The notes under the pieces were generated by a model. The model searched no databases, was not told where the DNA came from, and worked only from the letters and a program-made list of their open reading frames with translations. From the NCBI GenBank assembly GCA_963818365.1, contig CAWFRT010000005.1, positions 4,920 to 68,919 on the forward strand: DNA of 64,000 nucleotides, given 5' to 3'. This DNA comes from an uncultured Actinomycetota bacterium (GTDB lineage Bacteria; Actinomycetota; Actinomycetes; Propionibacteriales; Nocardioidaceae). Both the position numbers and the translations under genes were made by a program. Every line of letters begins with the position of its first letter. Positions within the stretch are counted from its first letter, which is position 1. Of the stretch, positions 28,189 through 54,603 are shown piece by piece.

Positions 28189-28209
28189 GATAGATTTAGG
28201 ATCCGACAC

Positions 28210-33856: not shown

Positions 33857-35277
33857 TGTCGAGTCCTGTCGTCGAACTGCCCACCGAAGTGGAAGTTGTC
33901 AACATTGGGTTGCCCCTGTTTGGGGAGGCGGTGGCTGCCCAGGGTCGGCCCGTGGTGCAGGTGGATTGGCGGCCGCCAGCGGATGGAAACCTTGAGGTGG
34001 TGCGTGCGCTGACCCGCACGTTTGGCGTGCACGAGGGCGTCATCGAAGCAGCAAACGCGGAAGTGTTTCGTCGCCTCGACACCGGGGTCGCGATGCTGAC
34101 CGGGGTGGCGACGGCAGCCGATGTGGTGCCTGACATCGAGGGTCAAACGATTCTGCACTGCGGTCCCGCCATCGAATGGGTGGACGTGTGCGATCCGCTG
34201 CGTCGGTCGATGCGGGCCGCGGTGGTGGCTGAAGGTTGGGCTGCTGAAGTGTCCGACGCTGATCGGTTGTTGGCCGCTGGGGACGTCCGGCTGGAGCCGG
34301 CAAATCTGCATCAGATGTGTGTGCCGATGGCCACCGCGATCGGGCCTTCCTCGCCAGTCTGGGTGGTGGAAAACCGAGACGGCAACACAGTCGCCTTCTC
34401 GCCGATCAATCAAGGGCCGGGCGAGGTGCCCTGGTTTGGTCGGGAGACTCCGGAAGCGATTGAGCGGCTGCGGTTTCTACGCGACGTGGCCGGGCCGTTG
34501 CTGGGTCGAGTGGTCACGGGGACCGGTCCGATCGACCTGTTTGCGTTGGCCACGCAGGGCATTGCCATGGGCGACGACATCCACATGCGCACCCAGGCGA
34601 CCACCAATCTGCTGATCCGCAACCTCTTGCCGGGCATCGTCGAGCACGGGGGTGCGCGGGGCGTTGAGTTCGCGTCGTACCTCTCTGGGAACCACCTGTT
34701 CTTCCTCAATCTGGCGATGGCAGCGGCCAAGTCGCTGACCCTGTGGGCAGAGGAGGTGCCTCATTCGAGCATCGTCACGACCATGTCGCGCAACGGAACG
34801 GGTTTCGGGATCCGGTTGGCGGGCAACGACGAGTGGTTCCTCACCGAGGCACCGCCGGTGAGCGATGCGCTTTACTACTCCGGCCAGTCCGCTGAGACAG
34901 CAGCCAAGGACATCGGCGACAGTGCTGTTTTGGAGTTGGTGGGCTTGGGTGGTCCAGCTGCGGCCGGCTCACCCGCCGTCGCGGCGTTCCTTGGCGGGAC
35001 AATGGCAGATGCGAGAGCGGCCACGGAATCCATGATCGAGATCTGCCGCGGGCCGAGTTCGCGCTTCAAACTGCCGATCATGGACTTTCGGGGTACGCCG
35101 GTGGGAGTCGACGTACGTTATGTCGCTGAAACTGGCATCACCCCCAAGGTCAACACTGGCGTGCTCCACATCTCCGATGGGTCTGGCCAGATCGGTGCCG
35201 GTGTGGCTACGGCGCCGGTCAGTTGTTTTGTCGAAGCCCTCCTCGACCTCGACCGCCGACTCACCGCCGAGAAGTAG
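33853..35277 (+). CDS. DUF1116 (YlbE/AllG-like) protein with an N-terminal FdrA-tail-like segment
   Basis: ILHCGP, MGDDIHMR, NHLFFLN, MSRNG, DIGDSA, INT-like VNTG; N-terminal VNIGL...VDWRPPADG. Confidence 0.88.
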   Translation: MMSSPVVELPTEVEVVNIGLPLFGEAVAAQGRPVVQVDWRPPADGNLEVVRALTRTFGVHEGVIEAANAEVFRRLDTGVAMLTGVATAADVVPDIEGQTILHCGPAIEWVDVCDPLRRSMRAAVVAEGWAAEVSDADRLLAAGDVRLEPANLHQMCVPMATAIGPSSPVWVVENRDGNTVAFSPINQGPGEVPWFGRETPEAIERLRFLRDVAGPLLGRVVTGTGPIDLFALATQGIAMGDDIHMRTQATTNLLIRNLLPGIVEHGGARGVEFASYLSGNHLFFLNLAMAAAKSLTLWAEEVPHSSIVTTMSRNGTGFGIRLAGNDEWFLTEAPPVSDALYYSGQSAETAAKDIGDSAVLELVGLGGPAAAGSPAVAAFLGGTMADARAATESMIEICRGPSSRFKLPIMDFRGTPVGVDVRYVAETGITPKVNTGVLHISDGSGQIGAGVATAPVSCFVEALLDLDRRLTAEK

Positions 35278-35283
35278 AACAAG

Positions 35284-35322
35284 GTGGAGGAAATAGCGCA
35301 CCTGGTGCGCCAATTCCTCCAC
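35284..35322. repeat. ~40-bp palindrome, family P
   Basis: GTGGAGGAAATAGCGCAC-CTG-GTGCGCCAATTCCTCCAC. Confidence 0.85.
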
Positions 35323-35343: not shown

Positions 35344-36033
35344 GTGGCGGTGAACACGTCCTTCCGGTCCGGGGTGAGGACGGGGGCACCGTTCGGAATT
35401 GTCTCCTTCGTCCTCTCCGCCTCCTTCGGAGTGTTGGCTGTGCAGGCTGGGTTCTCGTGGTTCCAGGTGCTCGTGATGTCGGCCCTGGTGTTCGCAGGTT
35501 CGGCACAGTTCGCCATGCTTTCGATCCTCGCGGGCGGCGGCAGTGGAGGGGCGGCCGTCGGGGCCTCAGGGTTGATGAACAGCCGATTCCTGGCGATGGG
35601 GATCGCCTTGGCACCCTCGCTCCCGGGTCGGTGGTGGTCGCGGGCCGCACAGGGCCAGGCGGTGGTGGACGCCTCGTGGGCGATCGCCAACCGCGGCGAT
35701 GGCACCTTCGACCGCTGGCTGCTCTTCGGCACCACGCTCCCGCAGTACGTCGGGTGGGTGGTCGGCGGGACACTCGGCGCGCTGCTCGGGGATGGGCTCG
35801 GCGACACGGATCGGCTTGGTTTTGACGCCATCTATCCCACCTTCTTTCTGGCTCTGCTGATTGCCGAACTCCGGGATGCGCGGTCGAGAGGGGTCGCCCT
35901 GGCCGGTGCCGCCATCGCGTTGGCGCTGGTGCCATTCACACCACCCGGCATACCGATCCTCGCCGCGAGCGTGGCGGCTATCGTCGGCCTCTGGTCCCCG
36001 CCCGCGACAGTGCCCGAGATTGGGGAGGCGTAG
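35344..36033 (+). CDS. AzlC-family membrane protein
   Basis: MSALVFAGSAQFA, MNSRF, VVDASWA. Confidence 0.9.
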   Translation: MAVNTSFRSGVRTGAPFGIVSFVLSASFGVLAVQAGFSWFQVLVMSALVFAGSAQFAMLSILAGGGSGGAAVGASGLMNSRFLAMGIALAPSLPGRWWSRAAQGQAVVDASWAIANRGDGTFDRWLLFGTTLPQYVGWVVGGTLGALLGDGLGDTDRLGFDAIYPTFFLALLIAELRDARSRGVALAGAAIALALVPFTPPGIPILAASVAAIVGLWSPPATVPEIGEA

Positions 36034-36035
36034 CC

Positions 36036-36356
36036 GTGATGTGGGGTCCTGCCCACCTCTGGTGGCCAATCTTGGGTTGCATCGTGCTGACCGCGCTGAT
36101 TAAGGCCGCGGGCCCGATTGCCCTGGGAGGTCGGGAGTTGCCACGGGCGCTCACAGGTGTGGTTAGCCTGATGGCCCCCGCATTGATTGCCGCCTTGGTT
36201 GTTACTGCCGCTTTTGCCGATGGACAACGGCTGGGCCTGGGCGCACACACTGTGGGGCTCGCGGTTGCCGCAGTGTTCCTCTGGCGTGGCAAGTCTGTTG
36301 TGCTGGCCGTTTTCGTGGCGGTTGCCGTCACCGCTGCCTTGCGCGCCGCCTTGTGA
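36036..36356 (+). CDS. AzlD-family membrane protein
   Basis: LIKAAGP, APALIAALV; follows AzlC. Confidence 0.85.
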   Translation: MMWGPAHLWWPILGCIVLTALIKAAGPIALGGRELPRALTGVVSLMAPALIAALVVTAAFADGQRLGLGAHTVGLAVAAVFLWRGKSVVLAVFVAVAVTAALRAAL

Positions 36357-36991
36357 AGGCGCGAGTGTTCGCCGTGTTCGGCCGGGCGATCTATGTCGCG
36401 AACGGCGACTCAGTTCGAGTGCTCGTCGACCACCGCTCGCCGCGTGGACCGCTACATCTACGAGTGCGGAAACTGCCATCGCTCCAGGTTGAGGACGAGG
36501 TTCTCCTCACCGCCGGGCTGGCGGAATTCCCGGGTGGGTGCGTGAGGATCGAGGATCCATGGGTGGGTGAGCAGCCCTTGCGGGGGCTCGCCAGGCTCGA
36601 CCCACGGCAGTCAGACATCGCCGAACTGGCTGTGCGCGTCGGCGGGCGAGGGCCCGGACTGACTCCGCAGGGGGACGACGTTTTGGCCGGCGTACTTCTT
36701 GCCCGTTGGGGCGTCTGCGACGACACCGAACGGCGCGAGCTCCTGGCCATCGCGCTGAGCGTGGACACCAACCGGATTTCTCGCGCCTTCCTGGCGGCGG
36801 CGGCCGGGGGCCAATGCATCGAGCCAGCCCACGACTTGTTGGTTGCGCTGTTGGTCGGCGATGAACCAGCGGCCGGCAGGGCCCAGGCCGAGCTCACGTC
36901 GTACGGCGCGACCTCCGGTGTCGCGCTGGCGCGGGGGATTCGCGCCGAGGTTGCCAACGATGGGTTGCACTTCTTGACGGTGCTCGGGTGA
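36353..36991 (+). CDS. DUF2877 (YlbF/AllH-like) protein
   Basis: GRGPGLTPQGDDVLAG, TNRIS, GATSG. Confidence 0.85.
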   Translation: MKARVFAVFGRAIYVANGDSVRVLVDHRSPRGPLHLRVRKLPSLQVEDEVLLTAGLAEFPGGCVRIEDPWVGEQPLRGLARLDPRQSDIAELAVRVGGRGPGLTPQGDDVLAGVLLARWGVCDDTERRELLAIALSVDTNRISRAFLAAAAGGQCIEPAHDLLVALLVGDEPAAGRAQAELTSYGATSGVALARGIRAEVANDGLHFLTVLG

Positions 36992-37241: not shown

Positions 37242-37868
37242 CTAGCTGAGGCTGATGTGGACGAGCTCGGCCACTGCGCGCCCGGAATTGGTCCAGGTGG
37301 CGGAGTGATCAGTGAGGAAATGCAGTGAATCGCCACGCTTAAGAGCGAAGTCACGGCCGCCGATTGTGGCGTGCACCGCTCCGGCAACCACGTGCACCAA
37401 CGACTCACCACCACGTGCGGGCGCATCCTCCAACACGGCGCCAGCGGGCAACTTGATCGTCGTACCTCTGGCGCGGAACCGAGCCGGTGGTCCGGAGATG
37501 AGTACGACGTCGGCGCCGCCACGATCCACCGGCTCGCCGGTGCCAGACGCCACATGCCAGACGTCATGGGGATCCTCGGGCTCTTCGCCAATGAGGTGGC
37601 TGATCGGACGCTTGAAGACGGTGGCCAGTTTGAGCAGAGTCGTGATCGTCGGCACCATGTCGCCGCGCTCGATCTTGTGGATCGAAGCGGCGCTCACTTC
37701 GGCAATCGCACTCATCTGTTGGAGCGACAACCCCAAGCCGGCCCGCATGTCGGCCAGCCGCGGACCAATCCCGGCTACGACCTCCTCAACGCTCAGGGCG
37801 CCCGTGTCAGTCGCGTTTTCCGGCGTGACTGAAGTGCTGGCGGCGTTTGCAGCACTGCCTCTAGGCAT
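37242..37868 (-). CDS. XRE-family HTH regulator with C-terminal cupin domain
   Basis: LSLQQMSAIAEVSAASIHKIERG...PTITTL; GGESLVHVVAG, GDSLHF. Confidence 0.92.
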   Translation of the reverse strand: MPRGSAANAASTSVTPENATDTGALSVEEVVAGIGPRLADMRAGLGLSLQQMSAIAEVSAASIHKIERGDMVPTITTLLKLATVFKRPISHLIGEEPEDPHDVWHVASGTGEPVDRGGADVVLISGPPARFRARGTTIKLPAGAVLEDAPARGGESLVHVVAGAVHATIGGRDFALKRGDSLHFLTDHSATWTNSGRAVAELVHISLS

Positions 37869-37882
37869 TTGCCTGTCCTCTC

Positions 37883-37914
37883 TTGACGTCCCACTCGCGT
37901 TTACTATGATAGAC
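37883..37914 (+). promoter_or_regulatory. Promoter (TTGACG-16-TATGAT) overlapped by candidate operator copy 3
   Basis: GTTTACTATGATAGAC at 37899-37914, 13/16 to consensus. Confidence 0.6.
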
Positions 37915-37984
37915 GACAACCTCACATAATGGACACGCCATCGCTGACGTGTTCGCCGGTCTCGTCAGGAGTGTCCATCAAGTT

Positions 37985-39319
37985 ATGAAGACAGTAGTCA
38001 TCGGTGGCGGTTCGGCAGGCACGGGCGCAGCCGGAGGGGTGAAAGCGGCCAATCCCGAAAACGAAGTCGTTGTTTACACCGACTTCCAGGACATCGCCTA
38101 CAGCCCTTGCGGCATCCCATTTGTGCACGGCAAGGAGATCGAGAGTTTCTCCAAGCTCTTCTTGGCCACCAAAGAGGACTACGTCAAAGCCGGCATCGAC
38201 ATCCACTACAACACCACCGTCACCAGCATTGATGTGAAGGCAAAGACCATCGAGGTCGAGGGCGAAGGAACGGTCTCGTGGGATCGGCTGGTCATCGCGA
38301 GCGGCTTCAAGTACGCCAACCCCGGCGTTCCGGGCGGGGATCTCGACGGTCTCTACTACATGAAGAACATCCGCGAAGCCGAGATCTGGGACAAGCGCCT
38401 CGACACGGTCAAGAAGGCCGTCGTGATCGAGGCCGGACCGCTGGGTGCGGAGATGGTGAGCGCCCTTGCCCACCGCGGGATCGAGACTCATGTGGTCGAC
38501 CCTCACCCGTGGGCGTTGAGTGAGATCGCCGACCCCGACATCGTGGCTCCCGTCGAACAGGCCTGGCGAGACCAGGGCGTGCACCTGCACTTCAACACCA
38601 AACTCGAGGCTTTCCTCGGCAGCGGAACCGTGACCGGGGTGCGTACGTCGGAGGGTGATATCGACTGCGACATGGTTGTCGTGGCGACCCACAAGACCCC
38701 TGACACCAAGTTGGCGACGGCGGCCGGACTCAAGATCGGCTCGACCGGTGGGATCATCGTCGGCAACGACATGTCCACGTCTGCACCCGGGGTGTGGGCA
38801 GCCGGCGACTGCATCGAAGTGGTCCTGGGGCAGACCAAGATTCCGATCCAGGGGCTCACGGGCTCGCATGCCTATTCGCAGGGGAAGGTCGCTGGCTTCA
38901 ATGCTGGCGGTGGGGCTGGCGGGAAGGTCTATTCGCCGGTCTACGTCCCCTGGGGAATGCTCGCGGCCAACCAGATGGTGGGTGGGGTTGCCCTCGGCGA
39001 AACGCTGGCCGCCAGTCTCGGCATCCCACACATTGTGGGCAGTGCCCAGGGGATCTCGCGGGCTCGCTACTACCCCGGCGTACAACCGGTGAAGATCAAA
39101 CTCCTCGCCGACCCGGCAACTCACAAGTTGATCGGGGCCCAGATGGTCGGCGGCGAAGGCATCAAGGAGCGAGCAGACTTCCTGGCGATGTGTGTGCGCA
39201 AGGGCATCACCCTCGAGGACCTAGCGACGATGGAGAACGTCTATTCGCCGGCGATCGGCGCCCTTAACGAACCCATCTCCGTGGCCGCGCAAAACACTCT
39301 CGCGGCGTTGAAGAAGTGA
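37985..39319 (+). CDS. FAD-dependent pyridine nucleotide-disulfide oxidoreductase, CoA-disulfide reductase/NADH oxidase type
   Basis: IGGGSAG, AYSPCGIPF single redox Cys, WAAGDC, GAQMVG, YSP dimerization tail. Confidence 0.88.
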   Translation: MKTVVIGGGSAGTGAAGGVKAANPENEVVVYTDFQDIAYSPCGIPFVHGKEIESFSKLFLATKEDYVKAGIDIHYNTTVTSIDVKAKTIEVEGEGTVSWDRLVIASGFKYANPGVPGGDLDGLYYMKNIREAEIWDKRLDTVKKAVVIEAGPLGAEMVSALAHRGIETHVVDPHPWALSEIADPDIVAPVEQAWRDQGVHLHFNTKLEAFLGSGTVTGVRTSEGDIDCDMVVVATHKTPDTKLATAAGLKIGSTGGIIVGNDMSTSAPGVWAAGDCIEVVLGQTKIPIQGLTGSHAYSQGKVAGFNAGGGAGGKVYSPVYVPWGMLAANQMVGGVALGETLAASLGIPHIVGSAQGISRARYYPGVQPVKIKLLADPATHKLIGAQMVGGEGIKERADFLAMCVRKGITLEDLATMENVYSPAIGALNEPISVAAQNTLAALKK

Positions 39320-39326: not shown

Positions 39327-39584
39327 GTGAGTTTCTCAACGTGGTTGCGATCCAACTCGCAGCATTATCTAGTGGCGGCCTCGCAAGAGGAGATCGCTAA
39401 GCGTCACGGCGTACCCGGCCCAAAGCGGTACGGCGGCTTCTCGGAGTTCTTTTGGCTCAGCATCTTTGCTCCTCTCTATCGAATCCTCCCCTGGAAGTTG
39501 CGCCATGCAGTCATGCGCGGAATGCCTGGGAGTCACCGTCGGCATTGGGACTACCCCACCGACACCACAGGACCGGCGATATGA
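39327..39584 (+). CDS. Small hypothetical protein in the operon
   Basis: Protein-like composition (FWLSIFAPLYRILPW, MPGSHRRHW); 7 bp after the oxidoreductase stop. Confidence 0.7.
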   Translation: MSFSTWLRSNSQHYLVAASQEEIAKRHGVPGPKRYGGFSEFFWLSIFAPLYRILPWKLRHAVMRGMPGSHRRHWDYPTDTTGPAI

Positions 39585-39739: not shown

Positions 39740-40225
39740 ATGCCAAAGACAGTCAACTGGGGACCCCCAGCGGTCGGTGAGTCCCTTTTCAACGACGAGA
39801 AGTTGTTTGAGGACATCAAGGCCAACGAAGGCGAAAAGGCCTTCATCTTCATTCACACGGTGCCTTACGAGGGCTCGGTCGCCCTGGTGAACCTGCTGAC
39901 CTCGACGCGACTTCGTCGCAAGGGTTTCGAAGTCAACATCATCCTTTATGGCCCTGGCGTGCTCCTTGCTTCGGGCACCCGCGGCTTCCCGACCATTGGC
40001 GCCGAGGCGTTCCCAGGTCACATGGCGATCAACAAGCAACTGGGTGTGCTGATGGACGAAGGCGCAACGATCTATGCCTGCCGTTTCGCCATGGGTGCTC
40101 TCTACGGCATGGGTGAGGATCAATTGATCCCCGGGGTGAAGGCATTCCACCCGCTCGACGTACTCGACTCGGCGCTCACCGCCTGGCGTGCCGGCGCCTT
40201 CCAGATGAACACCTGGACGGTCTGA
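39740..40225 (+). CDS. MSMEG_0572/Sll0783 (NitB, DsrE-like) family protein
   Basis: FIHTVPYEGSVALVNLLT, LYGPGV, AFPGH, IYACRFAMGALYG. Confidence 0.88.
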   Translation: MPKTVNWGPPAVGESLFNDEKLFEDIKANEGEKAFIFIHTVPYEGSVALVNLLTSTRLRRKGFEVNIILYGPGVLLASGTRGFPTIGAEAFPGHMAINKQLGVLMDEGATIYACRFAMGALYGMGEDQLIPGVKAFHPLDVLDSALTAWRAGAFQMNTWTV

Positions 40226-40243
40226 TCTAGATACCCTCCCGCG

Positions 40244-40283
40244 GACGTCATACGAAGTGGTGCGAACCATTTCGTATGACGTC
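40244..40283. repeat. 40-bp palindrome (18-bp arms, 4-nt loop)
   Basis: GACGTCATACGAAGTGGT-GCGA-ACCATTTCGTATGACGTC, one mismatch. Confidence 0.8.
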
Positions 40284-40289
40284 TTGCGG

Positions 40290-40360
40290 GGTTTCGAGAC
40301 GGCGCTAACGCGCCTCCTCAACCACCGGACGGGACGGCGCTAACGCGCCTCCTCAACCAA
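40290..40360 (+). repeat. REP-like element, two units
   Basis: GGTTTCGAGAC-GGCGCTAACGCGCC-TCCTCAACCA, then a second hairpin and tail. Confidence 0.85.
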
Positions 40361-40414
40361 CATGCAGGACGGCGCGCAGGCGCCGGCTCAACCGCCAACC
40401 ACGAAGGAGGAGCC

Positions 40415-41083
40415 ATGGACGGCATTGCTGACATGGGAGGAAAACCCGGTTGGGGGGCGGCCAAGCCGCCGGCCGCCGACGAACCTGTCTTTGCCGAGGA
40501 GTGGGAGGGTCGAGCCTTCGCGTTGGCGCTGTTGTCGATGCGCACGGCGGGCACCAACCTCGACTCGTTCCGTCACGCGTTGGATCGCCAACCACGCGAG
40601 AAATACATCGACGACGGCTATTACGGACGGTGGCTGCACGCTGCCGAACTGATGCTCGTCGAGTCCTCGATCCTGGCCCCGGATGCGGTTGAGGCCCGCG
40701 CCCGCAATCTGCGCGGCGAAGGTATCCCCGAGCCCGGCATCCCCGAGCCCAACAAGCCCGACTATGCCCCAACCGCGGCGGGTTCACTGCGACCGATCGA
40801 CGACGTGCCCGTCTTTGCCATCGGAGACCGTGTACGCGCAAAGGACATTAGCCCCGCCAAGCACACCCGACTAGTCGGCTATGTGCGTGGCCGCGAGGGT
40901 GTGGTGTCGCGGATCGAACCGTCAGCGCTGTTGCCCGACACTCACGCCACTTTCGAGGGCGAAAACCCGCAAAACGTCTATTGCGTCAGTTTTGACTCCC
41001 ACGAATTGTGGGGCGCCGACGCGGAGTCATTCACCTTGAACATTGATCTTTGGGAAAGCTATTTGGAGGCTGCGTCATCATGA
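40415..41083 (+). CDS. nthB: Nitrile hydratase beta subunit
   Basis: [50 protein letters not shown]. Confidence 0.95.
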
Positions 41084-41661
41084 GCGAGGAACATCTGCCG
41101 ATCCAACTTCGAACCGAGGCGCTGGAGCAACTGCTTGTTGAGCGGGGACTGGTCGATCCGTCGATCATGGACCGCTTCATCAGCACCTACGCCAACGACG
41201 TTGGTCCGCTCAACGGCGCCAAGGTCGTCGCGAAGGCCTGGACCGATCCGGACTACAAAGCCCGCTTGCTTGAGGAGGGCACCGCCGCGATCGGCGAGCT
41301 CGGCTTCAAGGGGCCGCAGGGCGAGCACATGGTGGTCGTGGAGAACACTGACGACACCCACAACGTGGTCGTGTGCACGCTCTGCTCGTGTTATCCGTGG
41401 CCGGTGTTGGGATTGCCGCCGAGTTGGTACAAAGACCCGGCGTATCGCTCGCGGGTCGTCCGCGAGCCTCGCGCTGTGTTGTCCGAGATGGGCCTCAACG
41501 TGCCCGCTGAGAAGGACATCAAGGTCTGGGACTCCTCCTCTGAGGTGCGTTTCTTCGTGTTGCCACAGCGCCCGGCTGGGACCGAGTCCTTGTCGGAAGA
41601 GGAACTGGCGGCCCTAGTCACCCGGGACGCAATGGTCGGCGTTGCCGAGGTGTCCGTATGA
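41080..41661 (+). CDS. nthA: Nitrile hydratase alpha subunit, cobalt type
   Basis: [21 protein letters not shown]; CTLCSC is the Co-type motif (Fe-type has CSLCSC). Confidence 0.97.
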
Positions 41662-42047
41662 CGTCCGCCTCCGGCGTACTCGACATCGAAGGGGTGGCCG
41701 CTCCTCCGCGCTCTAATGGCGAGTTGGTCTTTGGCGCCCCCTGGGAGAGCCGAACCTTCGGGATGGCGATGGCGCTGTATGACGCCGGCGCCTTCGCGTG
41801 GGATGACTTTCGCGATGCGTTGATCGCGCGGATCTCGGCCTGGGAGGCGGACCCGCCCGAGGGCGAGTGCTACTCCTACTACCAATGCTGGCAGGGTGCC
41901 CTCGAAGATGTGCTCGCGGCCAAGGGTCTCGTCACCCCCGACACGTTGGCCACCCGCGGTGCCGAACTGGCGGCTCGTCCCGCAGGCTATGACCACGGTC
42001 ACGATCATGGCGACGGGGACCACGACCACGGAGACCACCACCACTAG
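41658..42047 (+). CDS. Nitrile hydratase accessory/activator protein with His-rich tail
   Basis: [23 protein letters not shown], tail [17 protein letters not shown]. Confidence 0.9.
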
Positions 42048-42054
42048 ACGAACA

Positions 42055-42097
42055 GAGTGGAGGAAATAGCGCACCTGGTGCGCTATTTCCTCCACTC
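42055..42097. repeat. Perfect 43-bp palindrome, family P
   Basis: 20-bp arms GAGTGGAGGAAATAGCGCAC / GTGCGCTATTTCCTCCACTC, CTG loop. Confidence 0.92.
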
Positions 42098-42104
42098 TAA
42101 TCCG

Positions 42105-43067
42105 CTACCCCACCCGGCCGAGGGCGATAACGCAGCCCTGTCCGCACGGGTGGAGGGTTCCCTCCCAGCCACCGGCTTCCAGGAGTTGTCCGATGCGCTG
42201 CGCGGTGTGACAGCCGCGGTTGTGGACCTGACCCCAACCCAGCCGCACGGTTTGTCGCCCGTCGACTAGGGCATCCAGATCTCGGTCGAGGTCGCGGTCT
42301 CGTTGGTGCGACGAAGCATGGAAGAGGCGGCCATCGAGTTCAACGGTCAGCCCGAAAGGCTCGAAAGTGAGGTCGTCATAGAGCTTGCCAACGGTGCCAA
42401 CCCACGAGACCTGATGTAACGCCGGAGGCAATCCGTGAGGTCGTTGGACAAGGCGAACGAAGTCGTTTTCCAACACCGAGTGGGTCCCCATCGCAACGTC
42501 ATTGAGGATGCCGATCAGCCAGTCGCGTCGCCGCAACCGCGGACGTTGGTGTAGCGCGGCCAGCAACCGCTCGGGCGTCGTACGCCGTGAGCGGCAGGCG
42601 TCCGCAACCACCTCAAGGGCGTCCATCTCGAAGGGCTGCTCGGCGGCAACATCGAGAACCGCCTCTTCAATCCGCACCCGAGGAGGGCTGCCCTCTCGGA
42701 CGCGGTCGTCAAAGTCGCCCTGTCGGCAGATGACATAGCCGGTTCGCGATTTGACCCGTCTCCCTTGCGAGACCGTGATCGTGATCGGGTCGGCGTCACG
42801 TTCGGGGTGCCAGCCCGGACCGTTGGCGACCCGCAGGGCAGATGTCTTGCCGAGCGCGGCCGGGGCATAGAACAACGTGCCTGCCCACGCCCGTTGTATC
42901 CAGGTCGGCTGACCTGTGTGGTTGATGAAGACCCCGGGCATCAGCCGCACCAGTTGGCGCCTCCGGAGCATTCGATCGAGCGCAGGCTTGGTTACACCGA
43001 TCGCCACCAGCTGTCGGCGAGACACCACACCGTTTTGGTCTGCGAAGAGTTGTCCGAGGGCATTCAT
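42105..43067 (-). CDS. AbiEi-antitoxin-like N-terminal domain plus DUF559/Vsr-like nuclease-fold protein
   Basis: QNGVVSRRQL, LVRLMPGVF, HSVLE, VELDGRLFH, DRDLDRD, TVRLGW. Confidence 0.8.
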   Translation of the reverse strand: MNALGQLFADQNGVVSRRQLVAIGVTKPALDRMLRRRQLVRLMPGVFINHTGQPTWIQRAWAGTLFYAPAALGKTSALRVANGPGWHPERDADPITITVSQGRRVKSRTGYVICRQGDFDDRVREGSPPRVRIEEAVLDVAAEQPFEMDALEVVADACRSRRTTPERLLAALHQRPRLRRRDWLIGILNDVAMGTHSVLENDFVRLVQRPHGLPPALHQVSWVGTVGKLYDDLTFEPFGLTVELDGRLFHASSHQRDRDLDRDLDALVDGRQTVRLGWGQVHNRGCHTAQRIGQLLEAGGWEGTLHPCGQGCVIALGRVG

Positions 43068-43118
43068 CGGTCCAGTGTGTGCGAATCGGCCGACCCAAGG
43101 CGCACGAGCCCCGCTGCC

Positions 43119-43143
43119 TGTGGATGAACCCGCGTGTGGATAA
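43119..43143. promoter_or_regulatory. Two DnaA-box-like 9-mers upstream of the AbiEi/DUF559-like gene
   Basis: TGTGGATAA (43135-43143, reverse complement of TTATCCACA) and TGTGGATGA (43119-43127). Confidence 0.5.
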
Positions 43144-43148
43144 CTAAC

Positions 43149-43185
43149 TGGAGGAAATGGCGCATCTGGTGCGCTATTTCCTCCA
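43149..43185. repeat. Palindrome, family P
   Basis: TGGAGGAAATGGCGCA-TCTGG-TGCGCTATTTCCTCCA. Confidence 0.88.
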
Positions 43186-43369
43186 ACTTAGTCGCCGGAA
43201 AGTTGAGGCTCGCTGATTTAGCGCGTGAATGTGGTCATGGCGACCGTCCAGCTGCGCAACTATGACGCCGCGGCCCATGGCGCTCCGCGGCAGCGAGGTG
43301 CCGATTCGACCCATGCCACGCCTGGCGCGCACCCAGGCGTCGAGTGCGTCGTCGACGTCACGGGCTGAA

Positions 43370-43696
43370 ATGGATGGTTTGATCGCCACCGCAATGGGGC
43401 TCTTCAAGATTGCGGCCGTCGTCGCCGCGACTCTCGCCTCGTCGTGGGCTCTCTTTATGTTCGGCTACTCGAACCCCGAACTGGCTGCGCAGTGGCTGCC
43501 GCGCTTCGATGTTGTCACCAGACACCTTTGGGGGCTGGGCGTCTTGCTCGCCCTATTGGGGCTGAGCATCGGTGCATCGACGAGTCTCATTGCGCGACGG
43601 ATAGGCCAGTCAGCGTGGGCCTTGGTGCCGGGCCTCTGGGTGGTGGCTTGCTTCGCCGTCCTTCTGCTCGGTCCGCATTCCTCGTCGGGTTCCTGA
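43370..43696 (+). CDS. Small hypothetical membrane protein (about three TM helices)
   Basis: Hydrophobic ORF lying between two family-P palindromes. Confidence 0.55.
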   Translation: MDGLIATAMGLFKIAAVVAATLASSWALFMFGYSNPELAAQWLPRFDVVTRHLWGLGVLLALLGLSIGASTSLIARRIGQSAWALVPGLWVVACFAVLLLGPHSSSGS

Positions 43697-43717
43697 CTCT
43701 GGTGGATAACAACTAAC

Positions 43718-43754
43718 TGGAGGAAATGGCGCACCAGGTGCGCTATTTCCTCCA
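43718..43754. repeat. Palindrome, family P
   Basis: TGGAGGAAATGGCGCAC-CAG-GTGCGCTATTTCCTCCA. Confidence 0.88.
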
Positions 43755-43774
43755 CTTAAGTGTCGACCGCCTCC

Positions 43775-44956
43775 TCAGCCGGCGGAAGGGTCGCCGTACA
43801 ACTCAAGGTGGCGGAGGGCGCTGCCGGTCCAGGAATACTTCTCGGCGACGGGTCGCCCGCCCTCGACCAGCCGCGCGCGCAACTCACCGTCGATCGCGAC
43901 TCGCTCCAACGCATCGGCCAGCGCCAGATGATCGGCCACAGCAGGCATCAACGCAGACACCCCGTCGACCAAATATTCGCCGAACACATCAATGTCAGAG
44001 GTCACCGCGGGCCGCCCAGCCGCCAACGCTTCCAGCACCGCGAGACCCCAGCCTTCGTTTGTCGACGGATAGGCGAGCGCGTCGCAGGCGTGATACCAAC
44101 CCACCAACTCTGACTCCGGCACAGTGCCGAGGATGATCACGTCTTTGTCCAACGCCAAACCCAACTCGTCGATCTCGCGCAGGCAATTGTCGCGATAGGC
44201 CGCATAGTCCTGAAACGAGTGACCACCCAACACAGCGACAGCTGGCGGCGAAGGCATCCGCGACTTCAACTCCGCGAGCGCCCGCACGAGATGGATCGCC
44301 CCTTTGCGTGGCTCGAGGCCGCCGACGGCAAGGAACAAGAAGCGATCAGGGGGGATGCCGGTGCGCGCCCGCAACTTTGCAACCAAGTCATCGTCAGCGG
44401 CCGCAAACCGCGGCAGATCCACTCCGTTCCACACCACTGATGCCTCAACCCCATAGTCCGCCAGCAACAATTGGCGCCAATGATCGCTGACCACGAAGAC
44501 CTGATCGGGTTCGTGGATCGCGGCGATCTGGCAATCGATGAGGGCCTGCGTGGTGAAGTCGTCGACGTGATGAACGGTGCGTACGACGCGCACGGGAGTG
44601 TCGCCGTGAGCGATCTGGGCCTCCCTCACCCGCACCGCCGCCCGCGCAGAAATGCAGTCCTGGGTGTGCAGGATGTCGAATCCTCCGACGGCCCGTTGCA
44701 ACCCGACCTCCAGGGCATCAATGCTGGCGAAGACCTTCTCTTCCAAGGTGCCTACATCGCCGGGAGCGGGGAACACCAGCGTCGGAGCAGCGACCTCCCG
44801 ATAGAAGCCCACCTCCGGATCGCCGAGCGTGATGATCGTGACATCCGCACCCGCGGCGTACATCGCCTCGCCCAACGCGAGAGTGTGCACCACCCCTCCG
44901 CGAGGTTTGGTGGAGTAGGTGATTAGCGCTATCCGCGGGCCAGATCTCTCGGGCAC
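43775..44956 (-). CDS. MSMEG_0565-family GT4 glycosyltransferase
   Basis: IALITYSTKPRGGVVHTLAL, LHTQDCIS, TVHHVDDFT, GGLEPRKG, EGWGLAVLEALA. Confidence 0.92.
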   Translation of the reverse strand: MPERSGPRIALITYSTKPRGGVVHTLALGEAMYAAGADVTIITLGDPEVGFYREVAAPTLVFPAPGDVGTLEEKVFASIDALEVGLQRAVGGFDILHTQDCISARAAVRVREAQIAHGDTPVRVVRTVHHVDDFTTQALIDCQIAAIHEPDQVFVVSDHWRQLLLADYGVEASVVWNGVDLPRFAAADDDLVAKLRARTGIPPDRFLFLAVGGLEPRKGAIHLVRALAELKSRMPSPPAVAVLGGHSFQDYAAYRDNCLREIDELGLALDKDVIILGTVPESELVGWYHACDALAYPSTNEGWGLAVLEALAAGRPAVTSDIDVFGEYLVDGVSALMPAVADHLALADALERVAIDGELRARLVEGGRPVAEKYSWTGSALRHLELYGDPSAG

Positions 44957-46512
44957 TACAGGACCTTCTTCACCAGAGCGGGGTCGCGGGTCGCAATAGC
45001 GCCCGCTGCCAACGCCGCCCGGGCGGCCGTCTCGGTGACGATGCAGCCAGCGGCTTCCAGGGTGGACCGTTGGGCGGCGAAACCCTGCGGATCCTGGTCG
45101 GTGCCGAGGACGTACGCCACGACTTGAGCGCCCCCGGCATCGTGAATCTCACGACAAGCCGGGGCAAGCTGTCCGGCGGGATCATCGTGGGACCCATAAC
45201 CGATCACCACGTCGAGCAGGATCGCTGCCAGGTCGGACTCTTGACCGGCCTCGCGTAGCAGCTCCAATCGAGCCTCCGGGTCGATCATCGGGTGTGGCCG
45301 ACCTTGGGTGTATTCCTCCTCGCCAAGATCCAAACAGATGTGCGAGCCTGCCGGGGCCGGGACATGGAGGGACTTGTCGAGCGGGGTGTTTGACCAGACC
45401 TTGCCAAGAATCGGCCCCAGGATGGTTAGTGCTTCGTAGCACAGTGTGCCGCCCGAATAGAGGCCCCGCACCAGCGTCTGCTCTTCGCGAAGTCTTCCCA
45501 GGGAGTGGGTGATGGAGCTTTCGAGTGAACCCACCACATCAGGCACTTCGTCGCCGAGCAACCGCAGCGTTTCGAGCACGCCTGCCTCAAGCGTCGCGGC
45601 CACGCGAGCCGTGGACGGTAGCTCAAAGGAGGCTGTCGTGCCGACGTACGCCGCCACAAAAGGCATGTCGCCAGCCTCGGCGATCACTGCCCTGGCTACG
45701 TCGTCGGCGGGGGGCTTCGACACAAAGAGGATGGCTTCGACGTCATCGCGGGCTCGCAGCGACGCCACCGCCAGCCGGGCCATCCGGCCGTCGACTTCGG
45801 CGTTGAGGTCGCGCCCACCCAGCCCGATCACGGCGATCACACCCTCGCCAAATCGGTCGAGCAAACTCATCGCTTCCTGGGCGCCCGTGCCGGCGGCCGC
45901 GATCACGCCGATCCGGCCAGGCTTCACCACGTTGGCAAAGCCAAGCCCGGTCTCGCCCAACATCGCGGTGCCCGCGCCCGGACCCATCACCAGCCGCCCA
46001 AGCGCACGGGCCCGGTCCTTGAGTTCGATTTCAGCATCGACCGGGATGTTGTCGCTAAAGAGCAACACGTCGAGCCCAGCCGACAGCGCCTTGTGGGCCT
46101 CAAGCGGGGCATAGTCGCCGGGCACAGAGATGACGGCGACATTGCTGCCGGGTTGGGCTTCGATGGCGGCCCGCAGAGAGCGAGGGCTGGCCACCGGGCC
46201 GGACGCAGCCGATTCACGCGTGCTGAAAACGGCGGTTTCGGCAGCGTCCAGGGCCGCCGCGACAACTTCATCTGAAGCAGAGCGCACCGCAAAGAAGAGA
46301 TCGTTTCCGCCGGCCGGCTCGATCGACGCCGTGTCGAAACCTTCGGCTCGCAATTCCTCTAGATTGGCGGACGTCGCCATCGCGACCGCCGTCCATTCGA
46401 CTCCGGCAACGGCATACATTGCCCGCGTTCCCGAGAGTTGCACCACCGAGTCGACGTAGGTGTCGCGGAACACCTTGAGGGCCCGATTGCTTGCTGCGCT
46501 TTCCCGGCTCAT
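44956..46512 (-). CDS. fdrA: FdrA-family acyl-CoA synthetase-like protein (AllF-like)
   Basis: YVDSVVQL, ISVPGDYA, FSDN, MGPGAGT, GLYSGGTLCYE, DLGEEEYTQGRPHPMIDP. Confidence 0.9.
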   Translation of the reverse strand: MSRESAASNRALKVFRDTYVDSVVQLSGTRAMYAVAGVEWTAVAMATSANLEELRAEGFDTASIEPAGGNDLFFAVRSASDEVVAAALDAAETAVFSTRESAASGPVASPRSLRAAIEAQPGSNVAVISVPGDYAPLEAHKALSAGLDVLLFSDNIPVDAEIELKDRARALGRLVMGPGAGTAMLGETGLGFANVVKPGRIGVIAAAGTGAQEAMSLLDRFGEGVIAVIGLGGRDLNAEVDGRMARLAVASLRARDDVEAILFVSKPPADDVARAVIAEAGDMPFVAAYVGTTASFELPSTARVAATLEAGVLETLRLLGDEVPDVVGSLESSITHSLGRLREEQTLVRGLYSGGTLCYEALTILGPILGKVWSNTPLDKSLHVPAPAGSHICLDLGEEEYTQGRPHPMIDPEARLELLREAGQESDLAAILLDVVIGYGSHDDPAGQLAPACREIHDAGGAQVVAYVLGTDQDPQGFAAQRSTLEAAGCIVTETAARAALAAGAIATRDPALVKKVL

Positions 46513-47480
46513 CGGCTGCTCGCAAGAGAGTCGGCCAGCACGATGGTGGTCCCGACGCCGCGCGAATCGTCAGCAGTGGAGTCCAAGGCGTCCGCCACCA
46601 GTTCGGGCGAAGTGATGATCGCTCGCCTGCCGCCGTTGCGGACAAAGCTGATCGCCGCGCGCACTTTGGGGCCCATCGAGCCCTCCGGGAACTGGCCTTC
46701 GTCGAGGTAGCGCTCGGCTTCCACACTGGTGATGACGTCCAGATATCTGACTGTCGGCTTGCCGAAGTCGATCGCCACCTTCTCCACACCCGTGACCAAC
46801 ACCAAGGTATCAGCGCCGATGGAGGAGGCAACCTGCTCGGCGGCGTAGTCCTTGTCAACGACGGCGTCCACGCCGACGTAGCCATCCACGCGAGAAACCA
46901 CCGGGATCCCGCCGCCGCCAGCGGCAATCACGACCGCGCCAGAGTTCACCAGGGTGCGGATCGCGGCGCTTTCGACGATCGAGATCGGTCTCGGGGAGGG
47001 TACGACGCGACGCCAGCCGCGACCCGAATCCTCAACCATCGTCCAACCACGATCGGTTGTGAGCGTCTTCACCTGATCCTCGCTGAAGAACGGTCCAATT
47101 GGCTTAGTTGGCCGGGTGAAAGCAGGATCATCGGCGGCAACCACGGTGTGGGTGACCACTGCCACCGCCTCGACTTGGCCGTGCGAGGCGCGGCGCAAAG
47201 AGAGGGCAATCATGCTGCCAAGGTAGGCCTCGGTCATGGCGCCAAGGGTGAAGAGCGGCTGAGCCGGGACCAAGTCAGCACCCTCTTCCTGCTGAATCGC
47301 CAACGAGCCGACCTGTGGTCCGTTTCCATGCACGACCGCAACATTCCAGCCTGACTGGATGAGGTGGTTGATGCCGTGGGCCATGGCGAGGGAGTTGATC
47401 TCCTGCTCGTCGTACGTCCCGCGTTGACCCTCCTTGGTGAAGGCGTTGCCGCCCAGGGCGACCACCACAGAACGACGCAT
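46509..47480 (-). CDS. Carbamate kinase
   Basis: VVALGGNA, HGNGPQVG, PTKPIGPF, RRVVPSP, GGGGIP, DAVVDKD, GSMGPK. Confidence 0.95.
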   Translation of the reverse strand: MRRSVVVALGGNAFTKEGQRGTYDEQEINSLAMAHGINHLIQSGWNVAVVHGNGPQVGSLAIQQEEGADLVPAQPLFTLGAMTEAYLGSMIALSLRRASHGQVEAVAVVTHTVVAADDPAFTRPTKPIGPFFSEDQVKTLTTDRGWTMVEDSGRGWRRVVPSPRPISIVESAAIRTLVNSGAVVIAAGGGGIPVVSRVDGYVGVDAVVDKDYAAEQVASSIGADTLVLVTGVEKVAIDFGKPTVRYLDVITSVEAERYLDEGQFPEGSMGPKVRAAISFVRNGGRRAIITSPELVADALDSTADDSRGVGTTIVLADSLASSR

Positions 47481-47552
47481 TTGCGGGCCTTTCAGTTCAC
47501 TTGGCCGACGGGATTCGGCTGGCTAAACGCCGCATCTCAGGGATCGAAAGTG

Positions 47553-47588
47553 TTGGACAATACGACGTTGACGTTTACTATAGTAAAC
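47553..47588 (+). promoter_or_regulatory. Promoter (TTGGAC-17-TACTAT) with perfect 16-bp operator palindrome, copy 4; probably a leaderless mRNA
   Basis: GTTTACTATAGTAAAC at 47573-47588, immediately before ATG 47589. Confidence 0.7.
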
Positions 47589-47966
47589 ATGACGGAAGAA
47601 GCGGTGCAAGCAACAGACGCCCCCGCACCCATCGATCCACGTCGTATCGCCGAGACGCTCAAAGTGGCGCGTTGGCGCGAAGCCGAGGACCGGGTCTACC
47701 CCCTGGTGATGGTGGATCCCGCGCTTTATCAGGCGGCGGTGGCAGCCGTCGCAAAAATTTGTGAAGTGGTTCGAGAACGAGGTCTTTCGCGCGCTGAGTT
47801 GCTGGCACTGAACAGCCACGAAGTTGCCGCCAGCGTCTTAGTTGACCCCGAGCTCTATCAGCAGGTGACCGGGCTCAACGGCTCGGCTGGTTTGTCTGCT
47901 GCCACCCTCGTCGAGGCTGCCCTCGCCCAAGTCGCGTCCTTCACACCCTCAGGAGATACCCCATGA
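47589..47966 (+). CDS. Hypothetical protein heading the radical SAM operon
   Basis: RWREAEDRVYPLVMVDPALY; ATGA overlap with the radical SAM gene. Confidence 0.7.
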   Translation: MTEEAVQATDAPAPIDPRRIAETLKVARWREAEDRVYPLVMVDPALYQAAVAAVAKICEVVRERGLSRAELLALNSHEVAASVLVDPELYQQVTGLNGSAGLSAATLVEAALAQVASFTPSGDTP

Positions 47967-49108
47967 GCCAGCAGGTCTCTGACGTCATTCCCACCACGCT
48001 GGGCGAGTTGATCGCCGACCTGCAAGCAGTGGGCATGCGGACTCGGAGTGAGGTCGAGCGTCGAGTTGGTGGGGCCGGACCTACTGATGTCGGGATGTTT
48101 TGGGTCGAGGGGATTGGCGTCACGATTCCCACCACGAGCAACGAGGCCAAGCACTCGCCGTACTCCTTGGAGGTCGAAGACGAGGGTACGGCGATCTATC
48201 GCGACGGTGTTCGGCTGGCCTCGGCGCACGGCGAGCGGCGGCCCAAGTTTTATGACCTGGAAACTGCCGACGGGGTTCCCTACTGGCAGATCGCACTCCT
48301 CCATCTCGACTCGTTGGCCAGCACCGTCGTCCAGCACTGTTCCTACTGGGGGAACGCCGATCAGTGCGGCTTCTGCGGGATCGGCCTGTCGCTGGATTCG
48401 GGGCGGACGATCGTCAAGAAGTCGCCAGCTCAGTTGGCCGAGGTTGCGGTCGCCGCGCGTGACCTGGATGGTGCCGTGGATGCGACGCTCACGACCGGGT
48501 CATCGAATGGCCGCGATCGTGGGGCGTTGTACGTCGCGAAGTGTGGGCAGGCGGTCAAGGAGGCCGCTGGTTTGCCGGTCGAGGTGCAGTTTGAGCCGCC
48601 GTTCGACCTCGACGTGATTAACCAGGTCGGCGGCATGGGGATCGACTCGGTCGGCATCCACATCGAAACTTTTGATCCTGCGGTGTTGGCGCGGGTGGCT
48701 CCTGGGAAGTTCCGGACCGGCATGGAGCGCTACTTCGAGGCGTGGGAGCGGGCGGTGTCAGTCTTCGGCTCGGGCCAGGTGTCGACGTACGTCATTCTGG
48801 GGATGGGTGAGGACCCTGAACTCACTATCGAAGGCTGCAAGCGAGCCGTCGACATCGGCGTCTATCCCTTCATCGTGCCGATCCGGCCGGTGGTCGGGAG
48901 CCTGCTCGAAGACATCGTCCCGCCGACCTCGGACTACACCGAACCGATCTATCGCAAGGTCGCGACCTACATGGCTGAGCGCGGCATGGACGCTTCGCAG
49001 GTCTCGGCTGGGTGCGCGCGTTGCCAGGCGTGTTCGGCGATCAACTCGATGAAGACGGACACGCCTTTGGTGTTGCTTGGCCCAACCCGGACGGCTGAGA
49101 GCGCCTGA
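47963..49108 (+). CDS. MSMEG_0568-family (NitD-type) radical SAM protein
   Basis: IALLHLDSLASTV, CSYWGNADQCGFC (Cx8Cx2C), TLTTG, GIHIE, STYVILGMGE, C-terminal GCARCQACS. Confidence 0.92.
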   Translation: MSQQVSDVIPTTLGELIADLQAVGMRTRSEVERRVGGAGPTDVGMFWVEGIGVTIPTTSNEAKHSPYSLEVEDEGTAIYRDGVRLASAHGERRPKFYDLETADGVPYWQIALLHLDSLASTVVQHCSYWGNADQCGFCGIGLSLDSGRTIVKKSPAQLAEVAVAARDLDGAVDATLTTGSSNGRDRGALYVAKCGQAVKEAAGLPVEVQFEPPFDLDVINQVGGMGIDSVGIHIETFDPAVLARVAPGKFRTGMERYFEAWERAVSVFGSGQVSTYVILGMGEDPELTIEGCKRAVDIGVYPFIVPIRPVVGSLLEDIVPPTSDYTEPIYRKVATYMAERGMDASQVSAGCARCQACSAINSMKTDTPLVLLGPTRTAESA

Positions 49109-49749: not shown

Positions 49750-49860
49750 GCCCAATCCACGTGACTCCTCGCGCGGATTTCGTGACTCCTCACCCAATCC
49801 ACGTGACTCCTCGACGCAACTACGTGACTCGTCGGCCGAATTACGTGACTCCTCACCCGA
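49750..49860 (-). repeat. 21-bp periodic array, five units, inverted
   Basis: GTGACTC(C/G)TC at 49761, 49782, 49803, 49824 and 49845. Confidence 0.88.
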
Positions 49861-54528: not shown

Positions 54529-54544
54529 CCTGATTCCAAAGAGC

Positions 54545-54584: not shown

Positions 54585-54603
54585 ATCTTTCGGGATTTCG
54601 CGG

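Follow-up and report, generated by a model that had tools for sequence, protein, structure and literature searches.

Canonical Nit1C gene clusters have a Nit6803 nitrilase gene directly after nitB (PMC1199592). In the stretch of DNA studied here (64,000 nucleotides, referred to below as the window; positions 4920-68919 of contig C5 in the 3.4-Mb, six-contig genome of an uncultured member of the Nocardioidaceae), the NitB homologue is followed by genes for a cobalt-type nitrile hydratase (NHase), which raises the question of whether the NHase has taken over the place and the task of the nitrilase. The sequence-only reading of the window had proposed just that, namely a Nit1C variant in which the nitrile step yields an amide. 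A list of open reading frames (ORFs) together with family scans located every gene named in that reading where it had placed it. Comparison with about 190 related loci, however, showed that the NHase is an optional module that alternates with an amidohydrolase of the Amidohydro_2 family (PF04909) rather than a simple replacement of the nitrilase.

The NitB homologue (39740-40225, + strand; 161 aa) belongs to the MSMEG_0572/Sll0783 family, scoring 197.8 bits with TIGR04044 against a cut-off of 109.85. On the same strand follow the NHase beta subunit (40415-41083; a single 222-aa protein; TIGR03888, 173.1 versus 152.2 bits), the cobalt-type alpha subunit (ORF 41050-41661, likely 41080-41661; TIGR01323, 306.6 versus 249.85) and an accessory, or activator, protein (41658-42047; TIGR03889, 69.2 versus 46). 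All three families pass their curated cut-offs, in agreement with the succession of beta subunit, alpha subunit (with CTLCSC) and activator that had been read from the sequence. The likely start of alpha is the ATG at 41080, which lies behind a GGAGG and overlaps the beta stop codon as ATGA, and the three genes, in the order beta-alpha-activator, are translationally coupled. The alpha subunit carries the active-site motif VCTLCSCY, in which CTLCSC is the metal site and the Thr and Tyr mark the cobalt type, and it aligns over its full length with solved cobalt-type NHases (PDB alpha chains, E values of ~1e-79 to 1e-98). The best PDB match of the beta subunit is likewise a cobalt-type NHase beta chain (3qxe_B), and the accessory protein ends in a C-terminal tail rich in His and Asp. 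This is the only NHase of the genome. By these sequence criteria, 40415-42047 encodes a complete, ordinary-looking and functional-looking cobalt NHase with its metallochaperone; its expected reaction is the hydration of a nitrile (R-C#N) to the corresponding carboxamide. We also considered thiocyanate hydrolase and rejected it: the score of the alpha subunit with the gamma-subunit family TIGR03887 (188.7 bits) falls short of the cut-off of 291.45, the beta equivalent is unsplit, and the alpha subunit of thiocyanate hydrolase matches the NHase beta subunit over residues 133-219 only.

Compared with the cobalt-type NHases of Pseudonocardia thermophila, Pseudomonas putida and Bacillus (PDB 1ire, 3qxe and 1v29), the window enzyme is alike in subunits, activator, motif and gene order. 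It differs from them in having no amidase, aldoxime dehydratase or amide regulator next to it and in being embedded in a cluster of NitB and coenzyme-M-type genes, with a clade of relatives found almost only in such surroundings.

The absence of a nitrilase, NitG and NitH, noted previously for the window, held when the whole genome was searched. No Nit6803-family nitrilase was found in its 3.4 Mb: the best match to TIGR04048, a gene on contig C3, scores 204 bits against a cut-off of 502.6, and tblastn with Nit6803 retrieved only that same gene, at 35-39% identity. Contig C3 also holds all five CN_hydrolase genes of the genome and its only gene with an amidase signature, so that the NHase has no classical amidase partner in the cluster. 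Searches by tblastn with actinobacterial and Acetobacter queries did not find NitG in the genome and found NitH only as a 28% partial match on C3. The genes for NitB, radical SAM, GNAT, AIR-synthase-like (AIRS-like) and glycosyltransferase proteins are each single-copy and all on C5; a nitrilase accompanied by Nit partners elsewhere, which would have spoken against the sequence-only reading, is thus missing from the genome. Nor did the window genome yield an Amidohydro_2 homologue of the kind found in related clusters. The position of the NHase behind NitB and the lack of a nitrilase with Nit partners are what one would expect if the NHase directly replaced the NitC nitrilase and turned the same nitrile into an amide instead of acid plus ammonia. 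This explanation also draws on the canonical arrangement itself, which we found on a plasmid of Acetobacter pasteurianus 386B (L099) in the order NitB, Nit6803 nitrilase, radical SAM, GNAT, AIRS, glycosyltransferase, MSMEG_0570 and MSMEG_0569. As set out below, the wider comparison made it look unlikely to us.

The loci compared came from near relatives of the window genome, from an even phylum sample of 401 genomes (16 of which carry NitB), from assemblies encoding close NitB homologues, from species genomes (45 loci) and from metagenomes (80 loci). Genes were mapped by tblastn with the window proteins and with canonical actinobacterial cluster proteins first identified by NCBIfam; gene content was mapped in this way for 69 loci, and Pfam tables were made for four contigs carrying clusters of the window type. 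The NitB tree fell into two deep clades separated by very long branches, with 100% support on both sides in the Shimodaira-Hasegawa-like approximate likelihood ratio test (SH-aLRT). Type I corresponds to the gpr operon of Mycobacterium smegmatis and comprises NitB, radical SAM, GNAT-AIRS, two CN-hydrolases, NitG, NitH and a glycosyltransferase. Type II, to which the window locus belongs, has a core consisting of an XRE-cupin regulator divergent from a flavoprotein-85 aa-NitB unit, the radical SAM, GNAT, AIRS and glycosyltransferase genes, a coenzyme-M-type ComA/XcbA/D/E/C set, AllF/G/H-like genes, carbamate kinase and OsmC. It occurs mainly in Actinomycetota, with an arrangement of genes that varies from lineage to lineage. 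When queried with seven CN-hydrolases and one amidase, every one of the 10 loci clearly assigned to type I gave a match, whereas type II loci gave none; with two Nit6803 nitrilases, NitG and NitH added to the query set, all type I loci were again matched and no actinobacterial type II locus was; and the Pfam tables of the four type II contigs held no CN_hydrolase or amidase.

These results divide the earlier proposal in two. The assembly of NitB, NitD-, NitE- and NitF-like genes, glycosyltransferase and NHase without a nitrilase is real, and its association with NHase recurs in 44 of ~114 related loci, the linked NHases forming a single clade with 100/99 support. A Nit1C cluster with one enzyme swapped is not what we see, as the window NitB sits in a separate deep clade and the clusters around it also lack NitG and NitH and add further pathways. 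The NHase may be a functional counterpart of the Nit1C nitrilase but no more than that, and it does not replace it positionally.

Of the ~114 type II loci with enough sequence, 44 carried the NHase cassette, 44 carried Amidohydro_2, 26 carried neither and none carried both. The pattern was the same in loci from genomes and assemblies (NHase 22, Amidohydro_2 29, neither 10, both 0) and in those metagenome loci where NitB is followed by 1.5 kb or more of sequence (NHase 22, Amidohydro_2 15, neither 16, both 0). Among the 61 rows for genomes and assemblies are two pairs of duplicate contigs (L014 = L043 and L055 = L039), one locus that is type I in the NitB tree (L034) and one in which the Amidohydro_2 match was found later (L084); correcting for these shifts each count by at most one. 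The mutual exclusion of the two enzymes has a Fisher p of 1e-8 in a naive test that ignores kinship. In NHase-less loci a gap of 1-1.7 kb past NitB holds the Amidohydro_2 gene, confirmed in eight of the nine ORFs tested. It lies exactly between NitB and OsmC in several loci (among them L066, L051 and L022), the same slot that holds the NHase cassette in L058, L060, L061, L064 and L069. A comparison of L061 with L063, whose flanks share 92-95% nucleotide identity, showed a clean indel of ~1.6 kb that contains the cassette and sits between nitB and OsmC, at the nitB stop codon. Among 12 genomes with an NHase-less type II cluster, seven had no NHase alpha gene anywhere (two of these seven being only 57% and 77% complete).

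The cassette is also not fixed in place. Most commonly it follows NitB, but it can be convergent with NitB behind OsmC (L044-46, L101, L104, L105 and L109), upstream of the flavoprotein gene (L078/79) or after AllG (L095), and these four positions mean that the linkage is to the cluster and not to the 3' end of nitB. Direct replacement of the nitrilase fits poorly with this varied placement, with the ~60% of type II clusters that have neither nitrilase nor NHase (together with the seven of 12 such genomes that have no NHase at all) and with the absence of NitG and NitH as well.

The distribution of Amidohydro_2 weighs in the same direction. Half of the type I clusters, too, have the gene adjoining NitB, in the company of their CN-hydrolases, and since it coexists with these enzymes there, its role differs from that of the nitrilase family; yet this is the enzyme that the NHase excludes in type II. 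The type I copies (L018, L020, L023, L025 and L027) are 61-72% identical to type II copies (L066 and L022), while NitB of the two types is only ~42% identical, which suggests, as far as sequence comparison goes, either exchange between cluster types or unusually strong constraint. The modelled protein is an amidohydrolase TIM barrel with a mean predicted local distance difference test score (pLDDT) of 85.3, and its invariant residues are DxHxH, Lys118, HxH, His182, His190 and Asp242. Searches for a name for this protein gave no NCBIfam match and no PDB sequence match.

If the NHase is optional, does it belong to the cluster at all? One could imagine an unrelated passenger, an operon for nitrile catabolism in general whose arrival next to nitB was a matter of chance. 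The clean presence/absence polymorphism of the cassette is compatible with this, as are the terminator-like hairpin between nitB and the NHase genes and a mobile AbiEi insertion directly beside the cassette in the window. In a tree of concatenated alpha and beta subunits, however, 22 linked and two unlinked NHases formed the 100/99 clade mentioned above, the linked enzymes (among which we count L083, which keeps a nitB fragment and OsmC) belonging to several classes of actinobacteria and, in one case, to an alphaproteobacterium, a metagenome-assembled genome (MAG) of Denitrobaculum (L067). Eight unlinked NHases from genomes that also have a type II cluster fell outside this clade. The two unlinked members, stand-alone enzymes of Streptomyces fodineus and Streptosporangium sp. 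that nest beside the linked enzyme of Pseudonocardia bannensis, lend the passenger explanation some colour and led us to reject the idea that NHases of this clade are exclusive to the cluster. Still, a passenger would hardly recur in 44 of ~114 type II loci of such varied hosts, always inside the cluster though in four arrangements, nor would its relatives be close to monophyletic, avoid Amidohydro_2 without exception and lack an amidase or aldoxime dehydratase partner, and we consider this explanation very improbable. No adjacent amidase was found for any cluster-linked NHase. One NHase outside the linked clade (L093, G182:C214) does have an amidase-signature gene next to it, the classical pairing. 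The NHase is dedicated to the cluster, yet optional.

In the window genome the cassette seems to have arrived together with the rest. No NHase beta homologue was found in any of 60 genus- or order-level relatives, and the cassette therefore came with the cluster here. Contig C5 (92,523 bp), which in size ranks second-smallest in scale among the six contigs, holds the whole cluster, and NitB is present in only four of the 37 genomes of the genus, the window's included. These findings suggest that the C5 cluster is a horizontally acquired island or plasmid.

The spacer between nitB and the NHase genes is 189 nt long and contains a hairpin with an 18-bp stem (40244-40283, + strand), directly 3' of the nitB stop, and a tandem direct repeat. 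It may serve to terminate or attenuate transcription or to stabilise the mRNA. Most type II loci, with and without an NHase, have a strong GC-rich hairpin 3' of nitB, the 80 nt past the nitB stop having a median fold energy of -39 kcal/mol compared with -26 in the coding control. Given this structure, co-transcription of the NHase genes with nitB is plausible but not assured. Spacers of six relatives do not align, and among them we found no conserved intergenic element, only the shared presence of a strong hairpin. The repeat consists of a unit of ~27 nt (GACGGCGCTAACGCGCCTCCTCAACCA) that occurs twice, ~35 nt apart, at 40296-40365, between the nitB hairpin and the start of NHase beta; it was not found in the spacers of relatives. 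Its 14-nt core was examined as a cluster-wide operator and discarded, with five matches against 1.55 expected and four of 100 shuffles equalling that number; the near-matches at 37067 and 37203 are not above chance.

The range of enzymes that can accompany the cluster was extended by two plasmids of Methylocystis iwaonis. These carry the type-II-like arrangements flavoprotein-small ORF-NitB (65% identical)-AllG, glycosyltransferase-AllF, cupin, OsmC and ComA-XcbA-XcbD, and in the same locus a canonical AIRS-GNAT-radical SAM-Nit6803 nitrilase operon, with neither NHase nor Amidohydro_2. This hybrid overturned our provisional generalisation that type II-like clusters never come with a nitrilase, and it means that a true nitrilase can serve such a cluster. 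It speaks for direct replacement, as does the near confinement of the NHase clade to type II clusters. In the light of this hybrid, the nitrilase, the NHase and Amidohydro_2 can reasonably be viewed as C-N-acting accessory enzymes that stand in for one another in related chemistry.

The remaining cluster genes of the window indicate what that chemistry may be. Upstream of nitB, a flavoprotein of the coenzyme A disulfide reductase (CoADR)/NADH-oxidase type (37985-39319, + strand, with the ORF open from 37949; TIGR03385, 255.8 bits, below cut-off) has a single redox Cys in the motif YSPCGIPF and is 59-95% identical across type II loci. Between it and NitB lies a conserved 85-aa protein (39327-39584, + strand) without a family match, which tblastn recovered in nearly all type II loci, always in this position. 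An XRE-type helix-turn-helix (HTH)/cupin regulator (37242-37925, start uncertain, - strand; PuuR-like, 43 bits) is transcribed away from the flavoprotein operon; HTH_3 and Cupin_2 domains are present in its orthologues, and its position is kept in most type II loci. The OsmC/Ohr-like protein (25897-26421, + strand; NCBIfam OsmC-like matches), which in most relatives directly follows NitB or the NHase cassette, is encoded further upstream here.

A coenzyme-M-type operon, ComA-XcbA-XcbD-XcbE-XcbC, was recognised by NCBIfam at 28132-33856 on the + strand. It consists of ComA (28132-28998; 236 bits, below the cut-off of 280), an XcbA-family protein (28848-29990; 254.6, passing the cut-off of 150), an XcbD-like protein (29828-31321; 563.6, below 600), an XcbE-like pyridoxal-phosphate enzyme (31314-32339; 197.4, below 450) and an XcbC-like protein (32336-33856; 413.7, below 575). 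Five families of the same kinds (ComA/XcbB, XcbA, XcbD, XcbE and XcbC) make up the operon xcbABCDE for bacterial coenzyme M biosynthesis in Xanthobacter autotrophicus Py2 (PMC9457059). The window set differs from it in that only XcbA passes the NCBIfam cut-off and in that the genes are linked to Nit-type genes; a scan of window genes showed none for the oxidation of alkenes or epoxides.

Carbamoyl-related genes follow on both strands. Directly after XcbC comes an AllG-like protein (DUF1116; 33853-35277, + strand; PF06545, 221.9 bits), and an AllH-like protein (DUF2877; 36353-36991, + strand; PF11392, 68.3 bits) is directly preceded by azlCD (35344-36356; family scans). Beyond the NHase cassette lie an FdrA/AllF-like protein (44956-46512, - strand; NF004760, 385 versus 433 bits), whose orthologues have HMA_AllF_N and Ligase_CoA domains, and a carbamate kinase (46509-47480, - strand; NF009007, 321.2 versus 266; TIGR00746, 346.7 versus 358.25). 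The same protein kinds form the oxamic transcarbamylase AllFGH and the carbamate kinase AllK of Escherichia coli (PMC11326118). In the window they are dispersed over three transcription units with no allantoin-pathway genes nearby, and the substrate of the AllFGH-like proteins is probably not oxalurate.

The NitD-, NitE- and NitF-like genes and the MSMEG_0565-type glycosyltransferase listed in the sequence-only reading are all present, with the qualification that the NitF-like protein scores below its family cut-off. This AIR-synthase-like protein of the sll0787 family (27196-28209, - strand; TIGR04049, 251.7 versus 321.3 bits), which also matches methanogenesis marker 2 with 187.8 bits, is encoded 12 kb upstream of nitB on the opposite strand, beside comA. 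The MSMEG_0565-family GT4 glycosyltransferase (43775-44956, - strand; TIGR04047, 343.7 versus 259.85), the NitD-like MSMEG_0568 radical SAM protein (47963-49108, + strand; TIGR04043, 382.9 versus 303.7) and the NitE-like MSMEG_0567/Sll0786 GNAT protein (49108-49581, + strand; TIGR04045, 96.6 versus 68.45) all pass. Upstream of the radical SAM gene lies an ORF for a conserved protein of ~200 aa (47364-47966, start uncertain, + strand; no family match), which shares sequence with the 5' part of the carbamate kinase gene through overlap and by tblastn is weakly related to a 207-aa protein that precedes Amidohydro_2 in relatives. Members of this ~200-aa family (for example L072:10467-11090, L050:10539-11168 and L017:2873-3574) occur in many type II loci, either upstream of radical SAM or between NitB and Amidohydro_2. 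A SARP/BTAD-AAA-TPR regulator (49853-53059, - strand) with orthologues in L014, L041, L048 and L095 is kept beside the cluster in the closest relatives.

A strain-specific insertion (42045-43763) between the NHase cassette and the glycosyltransferase gene comprises an AbiEi-like gene (42105-43067, - strand; PF13338) and a 155-aa ORF (43229-43696, + strand). Copies of a palindrome family (core GTGGAGGAAATAGCGCACC / GGTGCGC...) lie at 42045-42107, 43149-43185, 43709-43763 and 35284-35322, and three of them bracket the AbiEi-like gene and the 155-aa ORF. The closest relatives (L041 and L043) do not have the insertion, but a Nocardioides MAG (L085) does, and AbiEi paralogues occur on contigs C3, C4 and C5. 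Beside the cluster, at 21607-24384, are larC, larE and larB, genes for the nickel-pincer cofactor, with no LarA among the ORFs scanned and an adjoining gene for a CbtA-like metal transporter (24839-25675); LarB/E/C genes also directly follow NitB in Denitrobaculum (L067) and in a metagenome locus (L116). Past the SARP regulator, 53593-58119 holds a methylenetetrahydrofolate-reductase-like gene and encodes a corrinoid activation/regeneration protein of the AcsV kind, which at 439 bits stays under its cut-off.

Set against canonical Nit1C (sll0783-0787; nitBCDEFGH in Pseudomonas; Podar et al. 2005, PMC1199592), the window cluster shares the YchN/DsrE-like NitB (ORF1, 160-163 aa in Nit1C), radical SAM, GNAT and glycosyltransferase genes, along with an AIRS-like gene that scores below its family cut-off. 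It lacks the Nit6803 nitrilase, the MSMEG_0570 protein (ORF6, ~100 aa) and the MSMEG_0569 flavin monooxygenase (ORF7), and in place of a single compact co-directional operon its genes extend over ~25 kb on both strands. It adds the coenzyme-M-type pathway, the AllFGH-like proteins, carbamate kinase, the CoADR-like flavoprotein, the 85-aa protein and OsmC, besides the NHase or Amidohydro_2 gene of type II. The type I gpr operon MSMEG_0565-0572 of M. smegmatis confers GlnR-dependent peroxide resistance (PMC6039565). It resembles the window cluster in its NitB, radical SAM, GNAT, AIRS and glycosyltransferase families, and its redox theme fits the OsmC and the disulfide-reductase-type flavoprotein of the window. 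It is unlike it in having two CN-hydrolases, NitG and NitH, in lacking coenzyme-M-type, AllFGH-like, carbamate kinase and NHase genes, and in a NitB that lies across a very long branch from that of type II. In the literature on Nit1C, gpr, bacterial coenzyme M synthesis and AllFGH we found no description of their combination, nor of an NHase in it; type II thus seems to be a large cluster family for which we found no description in searchable literature.

NitB itself provides a further lead. Across 30 aligned NitB proteins of both types, only one Cys is invariant, and an invariant Arg follows it (Cys114-Arg115). The NitB model (pLDDT 83.9) matches structures of DsrE, DsrF, YchN and TusD, and places Cys114 at the end of a strand and the start of a helix. 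This place in the fold probably corresponds to that of the persulfide cysteine of DsrE and TusD. On the strength of the model, the NitB cysteine, taken together with the single-Cys flavoprotein, OsmC and the coenzyme-M-type thiol pathway, points to sulfur-centred chemistry.

How these parts work together can be phrased as a proposal, which we hold to be moderately probable: the NHase would be a dedicated but optional module of the type II cluster that shares its slot with Amidohydro_2 and feeds a carbamoyl branch. It would hydrate a nitrile or a heteroatom-bound cyano compound arising as a cluster intermediate, a side product or a salvage substrate, and the amide or carbamoyl product would pass to the AllFGH-like proteins and carbamate kinase rather than to a classical amidase. 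NHase and Amidohydro_2 may then be alternative ways to produce or clear the same kind of carbonyl- or amide-level intermediate, the slot next to NitB (typically between NitB and OsmC) being open to the NHase cassette, to Amidohydro_2 or to nothing, never to both.

Several observations weigh against this proposal. The exclusivity of the two enzymes rests on three independent pairs on well-supported branches, for which a sign test is without power. About one-quarter of the clusters do without both enzymes, which may make the step a peripheral one, and the two stand-alone members of the NHase clade indicate that the enzyme can work outside the cluster. The closest folds to Amidohydro_2 are LigI-type lactonases and decarboxylases, at only 13-20% identity, and a product shared with the NHase is conjectural. 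The strong hairpin means that nitB and the NHase genes may not be co-transcribed, and the Methylocystis hybrid with its real nitrilase keeps alive the simpler view of the NHase as a nitrilase analogue.

A more specific form of this dedicated-module proposal would place the cyano group on a thiol. Bound to the NitB cysteine or to a coenzyme-M-type thiol, it might be hydrated by the NHase to an S-carbamoyl group (a thiocarbamate), which the AllFGH-like proteins would convert by phosphorolysis to carbamoyl phosphate and carbamate kinase to ATP, NH3 and CO2, with the CoADR-like flavoprotein recycling the disulfide. The joint conservation of the DsrE-like Cys-Arg of NitB, the single-Cys flavoprotein, the coenzyme-M-type pathway, the AllF/G/H-like proteins and carbamate kinase is in keeping with such a route, as is an NHase without an amidase, and canonical Nit1C is reported to be required for cyanide assimilation in Pseudomonas (PMC7815647). 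The chain of steps is, however, entirely inferential; alpha scores as an NHase and not as a thiocyanate hydrolase, and the carbamoyl module and thiol genes are equally present in NHase-less clusters, so that the NHase step cannot be obligatory. We rate the thiol-bound route as improbable in this form. The broader notion that type II clusters serve thiol-based handling of cyano groups, from cyanide or formed in situ, with Amidohydro_2 as an alternative entry in NHase-less strains, would be just as speculative.

To our knowledge, the function of Nit1C has been without explanation since 2005, and its phenotypes to date are limited to cyanide assimilation in Pseudomonas, polyhydroxybutyrate and nitrogen-starvation effects in Synechocystis and peroxide resistance in M. 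smegmatis. The type II clusters offer a second, widespread family in which NitB, NitD, NitE, NitF and the glycosyltransferase are reused beside readable chemistry: a flavoprotein of the disulfide-reductase type, a thiol pathway of the coenzyme M type, enzymes of carbamoyl phosphate and a trio of C-N-acting enzymes that can take each other's place (NHase, Amidohydro_2 and, in one hybrid, a nitrilase). This narrows the hypotheses for these genes to sulfur-linked chemistry at the amide, nitrile or carbamoyl level. Cultured carriers are available for each accessory enzyme, with NHase in Pseudonocardia bannensis, Amidohydro_2 in Nocardioides daejeonensis MJ31 and Nonomuraea sp., and nitrilase in Methylocystis iwaonis. 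The comparison also delimits a cobalt NHase clade whose substrate is probably a natural compound and not a xenobiotic. Should the thiol-based handling of cyano groups prove true, it would provide the first mechanistic explanation of Nit1C-type genes and a new role for coenzyme M outside methane and alkene metabolism.

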